DNA from: a virus
Taxonomy: Duplodnaviria > Caudoviricetes
Direction: 5' to 3' (one strand)
Virus record (IMG/VR): IMGVR_UViG_3300036762_000065
Coordinates: 177,707-241,706 of that record
DNA length: 64,000 nucleotides
This document shows, in pieces, positions 20,545 through 27,850 of this stretch; the first letter of the stretch is position 1, and each line of letters opens with the position of its first letter. Position numbers and translations under genes: made by a program. The notes under the pieces are model-generated. The model saw nothing but the letters and a program-made list of their open reading frames with translations. It did no database searches and was not told the origin of the DNA.

Positions 20545-22422
20545 TTATTTTTTACTTGTACTTGTTGTTCTCGATAAAGGTGTCGATTTATTTTTACTAA
20601 TGTTCTTTAAAGCCTTCTCTATGTTTCTATTAGCACGTTCATTGGCGCTCTTTTGATTATAAACCCACTTCTTCTTGCCTGTTTTAGTAGAATCGGTTAT
20701 TTCGGATTTATCGCCGTAATCCCGTTGGCTTAAACTAGGACGCCGGCCTCCGTTCGTTGCAAGAACATCGCTGTGTGTGTTATTAGATAGTCCAACCAGC
20801 CGATCAATAGAGTCTGAGGCAAACCCTCCCATACCACTAGCATCCTCTTCGACCTTAGGGCCGTACTTCTTGTTTATCTCTGCCATACGCTTTCTATACT
20901 CAGAAACACGTTTTAGCAGTTCTTCGTCATCTTCGCCGTCTGCGAGCAGGGAGTCTAAATTGAAGCCTCCTGCTGCCGCCATAGCCCTTAGAGGCACAGG
21001 TACACCCTTCTCTGTGAGTTGCTGTAGCATATCCATGTACTGCATATCACCTTCAGGCTTAAGTTGCTTGGCCCAGTGTACGTTAGGTATTAGTAACTTA
21101 GAGCCGTCTTGCATGATGTTTAGATAGTCTTCAGTATTACCTGAATCCATCAAATTGTTTTTACGAATTAATTTGCCGGATTTGTTTACAGTAAACCCGT
21201 TTACTAGACTTATAAGAGGGAATAGTTTATTGTAAAACAATTTACGTGTAAGCATATCTCGATATGCACGTATATAATCAATGAATACAGTCAGCCCGGT
21301 ATCGGCAGTGGCATAATTAGCCTCCCCGCTAAGGAACGCCTCACTTATTCCCATAGCTCTTAGTTTAAACTGGGCAGTGCTGTCCCATATGTCAGTTACT
21401 TTCCAGAAATCACCGCCTTGGCGTAGTTCTTCTGCACTGACACCAATGCGTGTAGCAATAATTGCTCCTAGAGGGTCTGCATCCGCATTATTGAACAGGT
21501 CTGTCATGAAATCCATGTCAGCAATAGTAGGTTCCCACTGATCGCCGTCACCTAACGTTAGGTGCAATATTCCGCGTTGTCGTCTACTGCTCTCGACTAA
21601 TGTTCCTCTAAACAAGTTCTTTTCTATTAAGTAGATAGGAAGTATACGTCTAAACCAAGAAGTGCCTTCACCTGTACTAAAACTTCTACGAGGGAGAAAT
21701 ATAGTACTAACAGGATCAAGCTCCAATGCAGGCTCAGAAAGTGATTTAAGCAAATCAGGGCCTAAGCGTTCCCTAAGTTGTCGTATACGTACACTGTCTG
21801 TAGCATCTGCTAGTAGTGCTCTTGTGGATTCCGGAAAAGCTACTGTAATAATAGGATCTTGGGAATATAGAGGAAGAGATTCTACTTTAGCATTATCGCC
21901 TTGATGTGGCATAATGTCGATGAATTTCTTAGAAGTAGCATTAAACAAAAGACTACCTATAAAATTACCTGTAACAAGGAAATCTGTACTTATATCAGGC
22001 AATATAGTCCTTATGTTTAAACGTTCTATAGTTTCAACAAATGCACTTAGTGCCTTCTTATCCGAAACACCACCGAGAGTAAAATCACTGAACGGAAGTG
22101 TTGACATCAGATCGACAGCACTACCTGCGACAGGATCGTTGTAGTAGATATCCCTGTACAAACGATATACGAGTTTCTTTTGCTCAAGGTCTTCCGAAAA
22201 GACTATATCTTTTAATAACGGGTCTATATCCACTTCTATAGGCATTGCAGACACACTGGTATTCTGCATACCTGCAGGAGATGCTGATTCCGAAGTCCAA
22301 TCGTTACTTGTGCGATTGCTTTTATTGCGTAAGTTTACCGTATTAGTACCGAGCTTCTTACTTGAACTTCGGCTCTCGATACCTTGATCAACAAAAGTCT
22401 TTCGCGCTTTAAACTTCATCAT
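20545..22422 (-). CDS. Probable portal protein
   Basis: 625 aa, helical; YRDIYYNDPVAGSAVD and AMGISEAFLSGEANYATA portal-like motifs; near terminase. Confidence 0.65.
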   Translation of the reverse strand: MMKFKARKTFVDQGIESRSSSKKLGTNTVNLRNKSNRTSNDWTSESASPAGMQNTSVSAMPIEVDIDPLLKDIVFSEDLEQKKLVYRLYRDIYYNDPVAGSAVDLMSTLPFSDFTLGGVSDKKALSAFVETIERLNIRTILPDISTDFLVTGNFIGSLLFNATSKKFIDIMPHQGDNAKVESLPLYSQDPIITVAFPESTRALLADATDSVRIRQLRERLGPDLLKSLSEPALELDPVSTIFLPRRSFSTGEGTSWFRRILPIYLIEKNLFRGTLVESSRRQRGILHLTLGDGDQWEPTIADMDFMTDLFNNADADPLGAIIATRIGVSAEELRQGGDFWKVTDIWDSTAQFKLRAMGISEAFLSGEANYATADTGLTVFIDYIRAYRDMLTRKLFYNKLFPLISLVNGFTVNKSGKLIRKNNLMDSGNTEDYLNIMQDGSKLLIPNVHWAKQLKPEGDMQYMDMLQQLTEKGVPVPLRAMAAAGGFNLDSLLADGEDDEELLKRVSEYRKRMAEINKKYGPKVEEDASGMGGFASDSIDRLVGLSNNTHSDVLATNGGRRPSLSQRDYGDKSEITDSTKTGKKKWVYNQKSANERANRNIEKALKNISKNKSTPLSRTTSTSKK

Positions 22423-22449
22423 AGCGTGTGTGCTCTTTAATTATAGGAG

Positions 22450-22612
22450 TAAAAATAGTATGGTACTGTATAAGGTCCGACGCGAGTAAGGTGCAGAATG
22501 TAACACCTTACTCTTGCCGCCTCCAAAGTCAACAAACATTACACTACGCCAGAATGGTTAGTAGCGAGATAGTTGGATCACCTCCTTCTACGAGTCTACA
22601 AAGTAGACTCTG
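22450..22612 (-). ncRNA. Candidate structured RNA or leader with 16-nt complement to the 16S rRNA 3' end
   Basis: Hairpins at 22592-22610 and 22484-22513; AAGGAGGTGATCCAAC at 22587-22572 with no suitably spaced ATG. Confidence 0.5.
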
Positions 22613-22626
22613 TTGTTGAAAATTCT

Positions 22627-23025
22627 TTAGTAATATTTGTATAATCTTTCCAAGCTTAATGTGTTACCTTTTATAACAACACTATATCCAATACGTTCAT
22701 TAGAAAAAACATCTTTATGGCAATCCCAGTCCGATTTATGTAGAGCAAATCGTACTTGTCTTGTTTGTGCTACAGTAAGGCACAAGGATGTTGTTACAGT
22801 ACCGAATTTGTTTGATACATTCCACTCTTTTATGTCTACTTTATTTAATCCACCTGCTGTTAAATAAAGTAGACATCCCATTAAAGCATCCAATGTCTCG
22901 CACTTACTGAGTAGCTCAATAACTGAAATAGGTACATAACCGTATTTGTCTTCTTGTTTAAGTTTACTATATAAATGTGCAGGTATTGCTTGAATTCTAA
23001 CAGCTTGTTGGAATTTAACTTCCAT
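22627..23025 (-). CDS. Hypothetical protein
   Basis: ORF in packed array. Confidence 0.65.
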   Translation of the reverse strand: MEVKFQQAVRIQAIPAHLYSKLKQEDKYGYVPISVIELLSKCETLDALMGCLLYLTAGGLNKVDIKEWNVSNKFGTVTTSLCLTVAQTRQVRFALHKSDWDCHKDVFSNERIGYSVVIKGNTLSLERLYKYY

Positions 23026-23039
23026 TTATGTTACTTCCA

Positions 23040-23501
23040 TTAATCAAATATTAAAGTTTTAATCTTCTTCTTTCTTTCTTTGGCAAGTTTTATCGTATGG
23101 GCAGTACCTTTTGAATGTCCGTCATACGCTGCAAACACATAATCACATATATTAATCATTTCAACATTGCGCCTATACCCAGCAGACTTGCCAAATAAAT
23201 CCCACTGTGCAGGCATAGCTAAAACATTGAATTGATTTTTACGTGCCCATATAGCAGCCATGTCGTCAGGACCTACAGCTTGCCCGTGAATAATAAGTAT
23301 ATTGTTCTTTGTGAACAAACTGTTATGCTTTTTATGTGTTTCTATAACACGACTTGTAAGTTTTGACATCCAATAACAAAAAATGTCCACATGTTCTTTG
23401 TTTGTGTAGTTACAAAACGGATCACTGTTAAAAACGTTTTTGTCGTAGTTTCCTACTGTCCTACTTCCACAAACAAGAAAGCCTACATAATCAAGTTGCA
23501 T
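23040..23501 (-). CDS. SLOG-superfamily (DUF2493/YspA-like) nucleotide-binding protein
   Basis: LVCGSR, IIHGQAVGPD, PAQWDLFGKSAGYRRNVEM, DGHSKGTAHTI. Confidence 0.8.
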   Translation of the reverse strand: MQLDYVGFLVCGSRTVGNYDKNVFNSDPFCNYTNKEHVDIFCYWMSKLTSRVIETHKKHNSLFTKNNILIIHGQAVGPDDMAAIWARKNQFNVLAMPAQWDLFGKSAGYRRNVEMINICDYVFAAYDGHSKGTAHTIKLAKERKKKIKTLIFD

Positions 23502-23538
23502 AAAAAACTCCTTGTGTATGTAGGCTATTTACACTTTA

Positions 23539-24087
23539 TTAAGCATGTTCAAATCGTTCGCTTTCCTTCTGACCTTTTATAAATCGGTTGAAGAAGGCGC
23601 CTTGAGATTTAGATCGTTCTAGTTTCTTAACTTCCAGTGCGCTAACGTCTTTATACGTCCACTCAGCACCATTCGGAAACTGCACAAGCAACTCACTCTT
23701 TTTACTGTTGTACCAAACGTTCTGTAACATAGAGCTATCAACGCGGACTTCAGTGAGTTCATCCTGAACAAGTCGCTTACGGTCTTTACCTGCGTCTTGT
23801 CCTGCAACTACGTTAACACGCCCAATCTTACCGCTGTATGATTTGGAGTTTGTTAGTATGCGCTTTGCATCAAAAGGTTTTAGCTTGAACTGTACATATA
23901 GATAAGAACCGTCTATTAAGAAGTAAGAGCCTGACGCCCGCTTAATACCGAACTTGTCTCCTTTCTTTAGCTCCATGTCATATTCAGGACCGACATCAAA
24001 CGTAGCAGTACGTCCGTCATAGACATACCACTTATATTTCTGAGGGTCCAGTTTAGTTTTTGAGGTTGCCGAACACGATGTAAACAT
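23539..24087 (-). CDS. KTSC-domain protein with N-terminal module shared with the SprT protein
   Basis: VDSSMLQNVWYN...LLVQFPNGAEWTY...SQGAFFNRFIK. Confidence 0.8.
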   Translation of the reverse strand: MFTSCSATSKTKLDPQKYKWYVYDGRTATFDVGPEYDMELKKGDKFGIKRASGSYFLIDGSYLYVQFKLKPFDAKRILTNSKSYSGKIGRVNVVAGQDAGKDRKRLVQDELTEVRVDSSMLQNVWYNSKKSELLVQFPNGAEWTYKDVSALEVKKLERSKSQGAFFNRFIKGQKESERFEHA

Positions 24088-24127: not shown

Positions 24128-27100
24128 TTAGCTTCGAGTTCTGATCTTTCCGATAGCACCTCCGTAAGAAACAGAACCTGCTCCGCCAGTTCCTACATTG
24201 CCTCCGCCCCCGCTGCCTAGTCGTGAAAATCCGATTGCGTTAGGTCTAAACTTTTCAACATCGCCCGGGTCTAATACAAAGTACTCGGCAAGCTTATCGT
24301 CTTGAAGGCCCCAACAAGTTAAGGCAAATGCACGCCAAGTATCGTCCGTAAGTCCTTCGGCTTTTAATACTTTAGTGCCTGTATCTTGTACTGTAAGAAG
24401 TTGCACTACAAGATGATCCATTTCTTTATCTTGGAAACATGTAGGATAAGCCTTTTCCTCGAAGTCTATAACATCACGCACACTCATTCCCTTTCTTGAT
24501 AGTCTTGGGAAACTAACAGACTGTTGTTCAAGTAATGTCTTTGGCAGCCATAAATCCTTATACTTCAAACTATACTGTTGTGTGTATATGCCTAATTCTT
24601 CCTCTGCGTCCGACAGAATCTTTAAGCTGTTCCACCTATCAGCAAGAAATACTTTAACGTTCCTACTTTTTACTATAGGAATTATAACATGATCATATAT
24701 TTTTGTGTAGTTTAAAGGGAAGCCCGGACGCGGCATTATCTCTACTAATAGATCAACAGTTATAAGTCCGTTATCCGCATTTAAAGAACTAACACAACAA
24801 GCAAACGAGTTGTTGGTATGCCCTGCATCAATAGCCAAACAAGAAGGGCGTTTTGATTTTTTAATTTTATCAATGACGCCCCACCGACAGGCTGATTTCC
24901 TACCGCTTTCTTTGCGTATCTTATAGCTTAATTTTACAGGATTGGAGTGTTGCCCTATGCAATCTTGTATGCTCTGCTTATCTGTAATAAACGGAGATGC
25001 TGCTAGAGGAGGTACCGCCCCGTAGTCCCGTTCTGCACCTTCAGGATCGGTTCTGTAACGTTCTTGTATAACTTTCGAATTTCTCGGTAGGGTAGGGTTT
25101 ATTTCCCACGTAGGTCTGTGTACACCGTATACTGACTTAGATGTTTGGGCCGAATTAACTAAGCTCATAATCTTATCGCGACGGTGTGCCGGACTACTTA
25201 CGTTCATGCTCATACCGTTAAGTACGTCATCATATCCTGCTTTGACAAGTCGTTCCGCAGCACCTCTTACAGTCAACAAGCTACTATCGAGCGCATCATA
25301 AACACCGGCTGCGCTCATTTTTATTTTCTTGCTGTCTGCATCGTTATCGAAGTAGCCGATTTCATCAATGCCTCCAAATACGCGAGTTCTTCCTCGAAGA
25401 ATACGTTTATCAGGACCTGCCGGATACCACATTAGATTTCTACAACGATACGCTACAAAGGTGTCATTAAACTTAAATAACTTTTGTCCGTACTTCTCTT
25501 CATAGTAGTTTAGCATTTTGTGGTATTCACGAAACCAAGGGCTTTCAATGAGAGTTCCGTAATAAAATTCCCACAAAGTTTCTTTAGCTTGCGCGTAAGT
25601 TAAAGCACAAAAGGTCCCGTGAAGGACCGTAGAAGAGGATACGTTATACACCTGAGCAGGCTTCTGCATTTTAAGAAGCCTGTGTGTCATGTAAGGTGTT
25701 AGCATTCCGCCAACCGTCTGCGACTTACCGCTGTTGTGTGATATAATACCTCCTGTGACGAATTGGTGTGTTTTAGGGAGCGTAAAATCGTAAGTCTCAA
25801 ATTGTTTAGTTGATACTTGGTTTTTGGTCACTCGACAAAACACCACGTCATCCGAACAATATGTCAACAACTGTTCAAATTCAAACTTGACTTCTGGAGA
25901 CATATACTCTACTTTTTGTAAAGCTACGGTACAGATTTCCAGTAACTTGCGTTTTGTTAAACGAACGGCTTTGCTCTTCCTTAGTTTTCTTAGGGAAAAC
26001 GACAATTTTTCACTATTGCGTCCAAACACAGTACTTATTCCCATTGTGATCTTGGGTATACGTGTGCGAAACTTTTCGCTGGTAGCACGTTCGTAGTAAG
26101 GTAAAGGAAAAACATGTAGTTCTGCATTCCAACGATCAAGAAGTGATCGTAGTCTGGATTCAAGAAATTCCAAATTCTCATACCAGTACGGTACTAAGTT
26201 TGTGCGGGAATCCAGTACCTCAATAGCGTGATCTAGTTGGTTCTTTTTGCGTGACGACAAAAATCCAACCTGGTCTCGAAAACGCTTTAAATACATACCA
26301 CGAATCGAAATAAACCAGCTAGGTTTAGAAATCTGCTTATCGGTCCCGTTAGTTGCCCATGTCCACTTTCTACGAATCCTGTGCGCTATGCCTAAATTGT
26401 GCAACATAGCACTAAGCTGGTATGCCAGTTTTTGACTTATCGTGCAATAACTAACAGAATGACGTAGGTCTTTCTTTACATTCCTACTTACCCAACCATC
26501 ACCTTCGTAAAGACCTTGTAAAAAGGCACAAACGTTTTCTTTTGTAGAAGTACGGACAGACAACGGGATTTCTTTTAACGCAGAACCAGATGATAACCCT
26601 TCGCTTGATAACCCTAGTAGTTCTGCGAAAAACAGGCGGCCCTTGTGCCCACGTATTGAGGTGTAGGTGTTGCCATTTTCATCACAAGATACCCTAATGT
26701 GATGCTTGTTTATATATTTCATTAACGTTTTTAGGTAGAACGCATTGACTTCTGGACATTTGTTACAAACACCTGCACTTCGACCTTCTGCAACCCAAAG
26801 TCCTAACACCTTATACATATCAGAGCATATATCACCTGAATAGGCTTTGAATAACGTAGGGTATTTTTTTGCAGTGTAGTCCATAGATTTTTGATTAACT
26901 CGCAGCATAATATCTTCGAAATATAGATGCCGGTTACCAAACACCTGTTGATTTAGTCGAACCGGCACAATATCTGAAGGCGACACGTCCACTAGGCGCT
27001 TAAAAACTCCATCTAGTAGCTGTATAGGGTGATCCGAAGTACCTCTTATCCTTATACCATTATACAACGTAACAGATCGAATAAATTCGGGCTTTGCTCG

Positions 27101-27850
27101 ATAAAAATCTGTGGTCTGTTCAAACTCTGTCCCGTTATGTACGTTTAAATGGAATCGTGAAAAGCCGAAACGCTTGTTTTTTGTATACTCACCTATACTC
27201 ATAAGACCGTGTTCAGTCAATATACAAGTATCACCTGTGACACAACGCTGCCCTGCACACACCGCTAATTCTTGGTAAAAGTAAAGCTGTTCATTTGTTA
27301 TGAATGTAGATCGTCTTCCGCCGCAAGCAGGACAAACCCCATTTTCAAACAAACAAACGTTACGCTCAAACGTCAAGAACGTATCATCAACTTTGTGGTC
27401 ATAATACAACCACTCAACATTCGAACAAGCAGGACAGTAATCAGCAAATATTATTATGCCCCATATAAGTTGCTCCATAAACGGTGTAACTACTGTACCT
27501 GCAAACTCATCCCGAGTTACCCACTCATAAAAGTTTTTAGCTAGAGGCATAGCAGAATCATCTACCTTTGTATCTCTTGGCTTAAAAGAACCTTTTGAAT
27601 CCTCGATCATCTGTCTGACCATAGAAGCAACGTTTGCTTCGTTCACTATCTCTATGGCAACAGCTTCATCTTTACCTTTATCTAAAAAAGAAGTATCAAA
27701 CCCTTCACCTCTAACATGTTTAAGTTTAGTCAAAAACTTAAACGGGTCCCCAGTATCTTTGACTGTACTAATCAACAGATCGTAGTCGTCATAGATGGAA
27801 ATTTCCTTTTTCTTTGGCTTATTCTTTTTATCTTCCAAAGCTAACATCAT
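24128..27850 (-). CDS. terL: Terminase large subunit, intein-containing
   Basis: After intein removal Walker A reads GQRSGKS; Walker B GGIDEIGYF; nuclease motifs LAIDAG, DRWNS, DDTWRA. Confidence 0.85.
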   Translation of the reverse strand: MMLALEDKKNKPKKKEISIYDDYDLLISTVKDTGDPFKFLTKLKHVRGEGFDTSFLDKGKDEAVAIEIVNEANVASMVRQMIEDSKGSFKPRDTKVDDSAMPLAKNFYEWVTRDEFAGTVVTPFMEQLIWGIIIFADYCPACSNVEWLYYDHKVDDTFLTFERNVCLFENGVCPACGGRRSTFITNEQLYFYQELAVCAGQRCVTGDTCILTEHGLMSIGEYTKNKRFGFSRFHLNVHNGTEFEQTTDFYRAKPEFIRSVTLYNGIRIRGTSDHPIQLLDGVFKRLVDVSPSDIVPVRLNQQVFGNRHLYFEDIMLRVNQKSMDYTAKKYPTLFKAYSGDICSDMYKVLGLWVAEGRSAGVCNKCPEVNAFYLKTLMKYINKHHIRVSCDENGNTYTSIRGHKGRLFFAELLGLSSEGLSSGSALKEIPLSVRTSTKENVCAFLQGLYEGDGWVSRNVKKDLRHSVSYCTISQKLAYQLSAMLHNLGIAHRIRRKWTWATNGTDKQISKPSWFISIRGMYLKRFRDQVGFLSSRKKNQLDHAIEVLDSRTNLVPYWYENLEFLESRLRSLLDRWNAELHVFPLPYYERATSEKFRTRIPKITMGISTVFGRNSEKLSFSLRKLRKSKAVRLTKRKLLEICTVALQKVEYMSPEVKFEFEQLLTYCSDDVVFCRVTKNQVSTKQFETYDFTLPKTHQFVTGGIISHNSGKSQTVGGMLTPYMTHRLLKMQKPAQVYNVSSSTVLHGTFCALTYAQAKETLWEFYYGTLIESPWFREYHKMLNYYEEKYGQKLFKFNDTFVAYRCRNLMWYPAGPDKRILRGRTRVFGGIDEIGYFDNDADSKKIKMSAAGVYDALDSSLLTVRGAAERLVKAGYDDVLNGMSMNVSSPAHRRDKIMSLVNSAQTSKSVYGVHRPTWEINPTLPRNSKVIQERYRTDPEGAERDYGAVPPLAASPFITDKQSIQDCIGQHSNPVKLSYKIRKESGRKSACRWGVIDKIKKSKRPSCLAIDAGHTNNSFACCVSSLNADNGLITVDLLVEIMPRPGFPLNYTKIYDHVIIPIVKSRNVKVFLADRWNSLKILSDAEEELGIYTQQYSLKYKDLWLPKTLLEQQSVSFPRLSRKGMSVRDVIDFEEKAYPTCFQDKEMDHLVVQLLTVQDTGTKVLKAEGLTDDTWRAFALTCWGLQDDKLAEYFVLDPGDVEKFRPNAIGFSRLGSGGGGNVGTGGAGSVSYGGAIGKIRTRS
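25733..27244 (-). mobile_element. Intein (504 aa) with LAGLIDADG homing endonuclease in terminase Walker A
   Basis: Starts CVTGDT, ends TYDFTL...GIISHN followed by Ser; LAGLIDADG motifs LGLWVAEG and FLQGLYEGDG. Confidence 0.92.

Follow-up and report, generated by a model that had tools for sequence, protein, structure and literature searches.

A start-less Shine-Dalgarno-like sequence upstream of a jumbo-phage portal gene as a partial copy of a widespread predicted phage RNA element

The sequence described here is found in the genome of a PaBG-like jumbo phage, an IMG/VR record of 241,706 bp with direct terminal repeats, of which a stretch of 64,000 nucleotides (the window) was analysed. The genes and other features of the locus, in their order from the terminase to the portal gene, are as follows:

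24128-27850, minus strand: terminase large subunit, 1240 amino acids (aa), with an intein
23539-24087, minus strand: KTSC-domain gene
23040-23501, minus strand: SLOG/YspA-like gene
22627-23025, minus strand: ORF of 132 aa that matches no known family
between the 132-aa ORF and the portal gene, minus strand: spacer of 204 nt
22438-22453, minus strand: TTTACTCCTATAATTA, a candidate phage promoter, with TATAAT at 22445-22440 and 17 nt before the portal ATG
20545-22422, minus strand: portal gene (phrog_16240)

The portal protein is 47-63% identical to the portals of PaBG-like jumbo phages of Proteobacteria, viz. Pseudomonas phage PaBG and phages of Erwinia, Dickeya, and Yersinia. In the relatives of this phage the KTSC stop codon is directly coupled to the portal start, and hence the SLOG gene, the 132-aa ORF and the 204-nt spacer represent an insertion. 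Two contigs from other samples carry extra genes inserted at the same place, and the KTSC-portal junction (22423-23538 in the window; 1387-2524 in contigs L453 and L454) is a hot spot for insertions, up to three further small genes being located there in sister contigs. The 11 contigs from other samples in which this locus is found represent two haplotypes only, with the spacer inside an identical 950-nt block; the clustered differences between the haplotypes suggest mosaic recombination. Some other characteristics of the region may also be recorded. The terminase intein contains a LAGLIDADG endonuclease domain, and relatives also have an intein (L015, 1183 aa). The only tRNA gene of the genome, a tRNA-Ile (GAT), is located just before the window (176958-177052, minus strand). 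Positions 22616-22645 of the plus strand resemble a near-consensus sigma-70-type promoter (TTGAAA-18-TATAAT, 11 of 12 matches) that is directed antisense into the 132-aa ORF and adjoins a terminator-like hairpin of the plus strand.

The sequence of interest is located in the spacer, where the plus strand at positions 22572-22587 reads GTTGGATCACCTCCTT (both strands were read). Because all of the genes here are on the minus strand, the transcript carries AAGGAGGTGATCCAAC (22587 to 22572), and the view of the initial annotation that this is a 16-nt complement of the 16S rRNA 3' tail is borne out on the minus (coding) strand. The 16S tail sequence and numbering used here are textbook knowledge. 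The features in and around this sequence are:

22592-22610, minus strand: 8-bp hairpin upstream of the element, which reads as a weak terminator on the plus strand
22588-22590, minus strand: TAG, 1 nt before AGGAGG and in frame with the 132-aa ORF
22575-22587, minus strand: conserved core AAGGAGGTGATCC, which complements the single-stranded 16S 3' tail GGAUCACCUCCUU
22572-22574, minus strand: AAC, which completes the 16-mer and belongs to the 3-4-nt loop that varies among members of the family described below
22566-22571, minus strand: TATCTC, a putative cis anti-SD mimic, predicted to pair with GAGGTG (22584-22579) in a 6-bp helix (P1, -4.5 kcal/mol)
22543-22565, minus strand: hairpin GCTAC/GTAGT at the position of the second family hairpin (P2), with a 13-nt loop lacking GGGTNA, aligned poorly by the covariance model
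22484-22513, minus strand: 10-11-bp hairpin downstream of the element, without a T run

No usable start codon accompanies this Shine-Dalgarno (SD)-like sequence, as had been pointed out earlier: no ATG, GTG or TTG is located at a working distance, the sole GTG lies inside the SD itself, and the ATC that follows opens a frame of 8 codons only. The portal ATG (22422) is 150 nt downstream of the motif and is preceded only by AAAGAG. In a scan of all 241,706 bp, the next-longest complement of the 16S tail is 10 nt in length, and the longest SD before the 233 long ORFs of the same genome is 8 nt, half of the length of the motif, a 4-nt SD core being present before ~65% of these ORFs compared to 13% in the background. 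In this phage, the motif thus stands apart as an outlier. A lone 16-mer could still be a chance product of a scan over many thousands of windows; the motif is judged to be non-random because its context (TAG-A before it and T-ATCTC after it) is common to a large family.

Pattern scans have led to hundreds of elements that share one plan, and judged by its sequence the motif in the window is one partial copy of this widespread phage RNA element, for which we use the provisional name "orphan-SD hairpin." The plan consists of (A)AGGAGGTGATCC, 3-4 variable nt and (T)ATCTCC(C), capable of pairing with GGAGGT(G) to form P1, followed after a linker of 0-5 nt by P2, a hairpin with the loop NGGGT[T/G/C/A]A(N) and with stems that differ between members. 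A search of phage genomes for the start-less motif had been proposed in the initial annotation; the exact 16-mer is found in 61 IMG/VR loci, and in 26 of these it is continued by (T)ATCT, compared to ~0.5 expected by chance, in at least 12 unrelated contexts. The pattern AGGAGGTGATC(C)-N3-5-ATCTCC(C), in which four to five bases after GATC were left free, has more than 109 viral loci to its account, and a similar pattern has more than 120 loci in bacterial genomes. The free bases are diverse (viz. CGAT, CTTTT, CTGCT, CGACT, and others), and CAAC, the variant in the window, occurs in ~5% of 109 distinct genome copies. Thus, the exact match in the window does extend over 16 nt, whereas conservation in the family covers AAGGAGGTGATCC only (13 of the 16 nt), with AAC in the variable loop. 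Because the CAAC of the window is located in this loop, it lends no support to two earlier suggestions, viz. that pairing would continue into the 3' strand of helix 45 and that the motif hints at the host group. The core stops at GATCC, close to the end of the single-stranded 16S tail, and the 3-4 nt beyond it differ freely from member to member; as to the host, GGATCACCTCCT is universal, and the family is found mostly in Bacillota. The 8-bp hairpin (GAGTCTAC/GTAGACTC) at 22592-22610 and the 10-11-bp hairpin at 22484-22513 are both present where they had been described; neither is a feature of the family.

In a search that used only the core and the loop as anchors and did not impose ATCTCC, exact ATCTCC was present in 74 of 77 family-like matches, and the variants in the remaining three (ACCTCC, GTCTCC, and ATCTTC) all still pair with GGAGGT. 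A search anchored on TATCTCCC and the loop yielded core variants such as AAAGGCGGTGATCC and AAAGGACGGTGATCC, which identifies GGTGATCC as the most constant block. For P2, all five of the modelled pairs change on both sides in the covariance-model alignment on which covariation was measured, and the observed score is reached by 0 of 500 shuffles; G.U pairs in P2 on the AGGAGG strand place the structure in the coding-sense RNA. P1 is invariant in the main set, and so it receives no real support from covariation. Among the 4227 covariance models of Rfam 15 there was no relevant match in the window, where the initial annotation had proposed such a scan, or in 14 member loci, nor in one element searched at a relaxed E-value; elsewhere in the genome, positions 166400-168000 likewise gave no Rfam match at E<=1. 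A named-phage DNA search gave no match with a Clostridia-type element or with the window region. In the literature, which was searched for both motif and concept, only 16S primers and reviews of STAB-SD came up, with no description of the element, which is apparently undescribed.

The members of the family are found mainly in prophages of Bacillota, and they include Streptococcus phage SM1 and Pseudomonas phage PaBG. The matches listed for bacterial genomes are mostly from Lachnospiraceae and other Clostridia, with mitis-group streptococci and one Marinobacterium in addition. An important characteristic of the family is its placement relative to genes. In 70 of 129 distinct members, the stop codon of the upstream ORF ends -2 to +4 nt from AGGAGG, with a sharp mode at TAG-A-AGGAGG. 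The element is usually located just after a holin or a small ORF, the upstream genes often being holins, and the downstream genes are mostly those for head scaffolding proteins, endolysins or TerL. In a set of 77 members, the three commonest scaffolding PHROGs account for 24, 9, and 8, several endolysin PHROGs for 4-7 each, and two TerL PHROGs for 4 and 3, counts that may overlap since matches of a single protein to several PHROGs are possible. A distance of 31-330 nt separates the element from the start of the next gene, which has its own SD. Of 140 members, 41 have a terminator-like hairpin with a T run in the 170 nt that follow, compared to 11 of 280 controls. Exactly one copy is present in each of 100 loci, and one copy in each of five complete genomes, including those of SM1 and PaBG; no copy was found in the first 15 kb of SPP1.

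In SM1, AGGAGG overlaps with the gp37 stop codon, and TerL begins 64 nt later. The PaBG copy, which has a GGGTCA loop, lies 42 nt beyond gp206 with a canonical terminator at its end, in a gap between convergent genes, and so the element is in a 3' UTR with no gene downstream. A 277-kb relative of PaBG carries the orthologous element before the gp206 homologue, and hence the order has changed between PaBG (NC_022096, 235205-235277) and this relative (L097, 2894-3101). In the Clostridium prophage L279, a toxin cassette with its own promoter has been inserted after the element, which is still joined to the holin stop codon. Membership in the Fst/par type I toxin-antitoxin group was considered and rejected, because the 28-aa toxin gene of L279 has its own promoter and lies downstream of the element. 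The cassette of this prophage (Clostridium sp. AM22-11AC), inserted between holin and endolysin ~60-1370 nt after the element, is flanked by the palindrome TTGCGACGTCGCAA; it holds the Fst-like toxin gene, a CopG-like gene and an anti-repressor-like gene. The same palindrome is found in L084, L098, and L233, and it may mark a recurrent insertion site.

Comparison with a covariance model of the family that was built without the window sequence indicates that the window copy is partial, comprising the 5' half with P1 only. It scores 24.3 bits (E 4.5e-5) and is the sole match in the window and the whole genome; full family members score 38-61 bits, and scores in the low twenties arise from the sequence of the 5' half alone. 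The core (A)AGGAGGTGATCC is present on the coding strand in non-coding RNA at the only such site in the genome, and it is followed by AACT and then ATCTC-G, so that 6 of 7 pairs of P1 are retained, the final C having become G. P1 (GAGGUG with UAUCUC) is part of the minimum-free-energy fold of the window. At the place of P2 there is a hairpin whose loop is TAACCATTCTGGC in place of GGGTNA. The 25-nt stretch TAGAAGGAGGTGATCCAACTATCTC is common to the window and to unrelated members of the Clostridia type. The TAG-A-AGGAGG of the window is in frame with the 132-aa ORF, the TAA of which (22627-22629) comes 12 codons earlier, an indication that this ORF may once have extended to the element. The viral and metagenome collections searched contain no second copy of the window variant and no relatives of the 132-aa ORF.

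Independently of the mechanism of the family, the window copy could be a decayed or hitch-hiking remnant of the cassette of the SLOG gene and the 132-aa ORF that is now functionless, an explanation that we regard as somewhat unlikely. It accounts for the arrangement in the relatives, where KTSC stop and portal start are joined and the cassette with its spacer is thus an insertion, for the further insertions at the same spot in the sister contigs, for the match of the model to the 5' half only, and for the early TAA, which suggests a truncated ancestor of the ORF. Against this, the 25-nt stretch is intact and P1 still folds, exactly one copy has been kept in each phage of the PaBG lineage, and 5'-half-only variants are known from other phages, where ATCTCG types are found upstream of scaffold genes. 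The element lies at the tail of the inserted cassette and upstream of the promoter-like site. The 16-mer TTTACTCCTATAATTA recurs identically upstream of another minus-strand gene (genome position 113812); it is a candidate promoter, which would make the portal mRNA nearly leaderless, with a ~10-nt leader that lacks an SD. The earlier proposal that the motif limits the dosage of the portal protein has become less likely given that a promoter-like sequence, TTTACTCCTATAAT, separates the element from the portal ATG.

The reading that we favour, with a probability of about 0.4, is that the element may be a self-masked docking or "parking" site for the 30S subunit that acts in the manner of STAB-SD. 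The start-less sequence is complementary to practically all of the free 3' tail of 16S rRNA, and the cis anti-SD mimic UAUCUCC would keep this site closed in the short hairpin P1, which in full members is followed by P2 with its GGGUNA loop. P1 would be opened either by a ribosome that completes the upstream ORF, which would melt it, or through invasion by a free 30S subunit; the 30S would then pair with the 12-13-nt site and be parked without initiating, where it could protect or boost the adjacent late mRNA (as in STAB-SD), or the site could serve for standby or retention. This reading is favoured because the core matches the universal single-stranded 16S tail and stops at about the start of helix 45 while the bases beyond it vary, because ATCTCC resembles the anti-SD and would close the site in cis, because P1 is weak (-4.5 kcal/mol compared to -31.7 kcal/mol for the predicted duplex of the region of the window 16-mer with the 16S tail), and because P1 has to be unwound by any ribosome that stands at a stop codon 1 nt before the site. 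Ribosome tethering of the STAB-SD type had been the central proposal of the initial annotation. Its observed part, an extreme SD-like sequence without a start on the transcribed strand, extends to the whole family, and for this reason tethering stays the leading idea, its action being an inference; three features were missing from that account, viz. the conserved ATCTCC, which hides the SD in a hairpin, the proximity of a stop codon and the promoter-like TTTACTCCTATAAT. More speculatively, and with much more doubt than belief, the family in phages of Bacillota and Proteobacteria could be a device of a new kind, a single-copy module that captures the 30S subunit via the entire free 16S tail, in which the anti-SD mimic would shut out free ribosomes and the ribosome finishing the upstream gene would open the site.

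Some observations fit 30S docking less well. The common variants AAAGGCGGTGATCC and AAAGGACGGTGATCC break the GGAGG core and so weaken both the 16S pairing and P1; the position of the PaBG copy in a 3' UTR, with no gene downstream, is a misfit with a 5' stabiliser; and for the window copy in particular, the GGGTNA loop is absent and the score resembles that of sequence-only matches. The invariant GATCC and GGGTNA are unexplained by simple docking, which suggests a loop-loop or pseudoknot contact or another partner. Hence, the element could instead be a structured RNA with a non-ribosomal partner, viz. a nut/put-like antitermination site, a processing site or a protein operator, in which the likeness to an SD would follow from internal pairing of GGAGGU with AUCUCC, and of UGAUCC possibly with the GGGUNA loop. 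The nut site of phage lambda is laid out as a linear box followed by a hairpin with a conserved loop, and the family likewise combines a box with a conserved loop on free stems, located right after a stop codon as in nutR; the invariant GATCC, ATCTCC, and GGGTNA exceed the needs of SD pairing, core-breaking variants are tolerated, and terminator-like hairpins are enriched downstream. However, an exact complement of 12-13 nt to the universal 16S tail is an unlikely by-product of internal pairing, no conserved neighbouring protein gene was found among the flanking genes of the members, a downstream terminator is present in only 29% of them, and the element is located inside late operons rather than near a promoter. 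On balance we consider a non-ribosomal partner to be unlikely.

It is very unlikely that the element acts in trans, as a phage RNA that might stem from a 3' UTR and would titrate 16S tails, shifting translation away from SD-dependent mRNAs as a 30S sponge or channel plug. The single copy per genome, the strong conservation of single-stranded bases and the PaBG copy, whose 3' UTR would give a ~105-nt RNA ending at the terminator, are in keeping with such a role; however, blocking of ribosomes would require a very high copy number of the RNA, the bias of placement to scaffold and lysis genes and to stop codons argues for action in cis, and no promoter is evident. Least probable of all is a functional plus strand (a small RNA, with a 16S-tail or anti-SD mimic beside the 22592-22610 hairpin, which together with the following TGTTGTTG scores as terminator-like on that strand) or a tiny ORF with a non-canonical start at the ATC 9-10 nt after GGAGG, given that the G.U pairs of P2 and the adjacency to stop codons put the family on the AGGAGG strand, that a scan found no plus-strand promoter upstream of the motif, and that in 111 members the ATC frame is not open to a greater extent than the two others, for which reason a leader peptide from this ATC was also rejected. 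Two further candidates were tried and rejected: a split ribosome-binding site for the next gene, in view of the 31-330-nt spacing and the SD of that gene, and stop-codon read-through or frameshifting, which would call for a constant frame and a long extension, neither of which was found.

Start-less SD elements have so far been represented by a handful of cases, such as those of cry3A and SP82, and the family identified here comprises hundreds with a fixed architecture. Since phages that can be cultivated are among its carriers (SM1 on Streptococcus mitis, PaBG on Pseudomonas aeruginosa PAO1), the parking of ribosomes on late mRNAs and the role of a self-masked orphan SD are questions that are directly testable, as is the question of whether the end of translation of one gene can hand a ribosome to a non-initiating site. 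The family is also a candidate new entry for libraries of RNA families, and it aids the annotation of late-operon junctions.

Of the known systems, STAB-SD, which acts against RNase J1 on mRNA, provides the precedent for a start-less SD (PMC4113751). Like STAB-SD of Bacillus thuringiensis cry3A and the polypurine 5' stabiliser of SP82, the element is an untranslated SD-like RNA that starts no protein; it can likewise pair with the 16S 3' end, it is located upstream of very highly expressed genes, and its members are mostly in Bacillota, which have RNase J1 (PMC4113751). The sequence characteristics of STAB-SD, viz. an SD-like sequence in an untranslated region without a translation start and complementarity to the 16S 3' end, are found in the window as well. 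Unlike STAB-SD, the family, which is known here from sequence, has a complement of 12-13 nt instead of 9, a cis anti-SD mimic and a conserved second hairpin, it often abuts a stop codon, and its distribution extends to 3' UTRs and to phages of Proteobacteria. The SD-sequestering hairpins of MS2, the rpmI-rplT operon, T4 gene e and RNA thermometers resemble the element in the pairing of an SD with a C/U-rich strand and in that a ribosome ending the upstream ORF would melt the hairpin; they differ in unmasking a real start codon, whereas the family has none and the next gene uses its own SD 31-330 nt away. With lambda nut (boxA and boxB) and HK022 put, the family shares a conserved box, a hairpin with a conserved loop and variable stem, a position just after a stop codon and, often, downstream terminators, but it has neither a likeness in sequence nor an N-like gene, its position is not close to a promoter, and a nearby terminator is missing from most copies. 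Lastly, at ribosome standby sites, such as those of tisB and the MS2 coat gene, a 30S subunit can wait upstream of the true ribosome-binding site, as is proposed here; those sites are unstructured and not SD-like, whereas the family combines an SD-like core with structure and lies at long and variable distances from the start codon.
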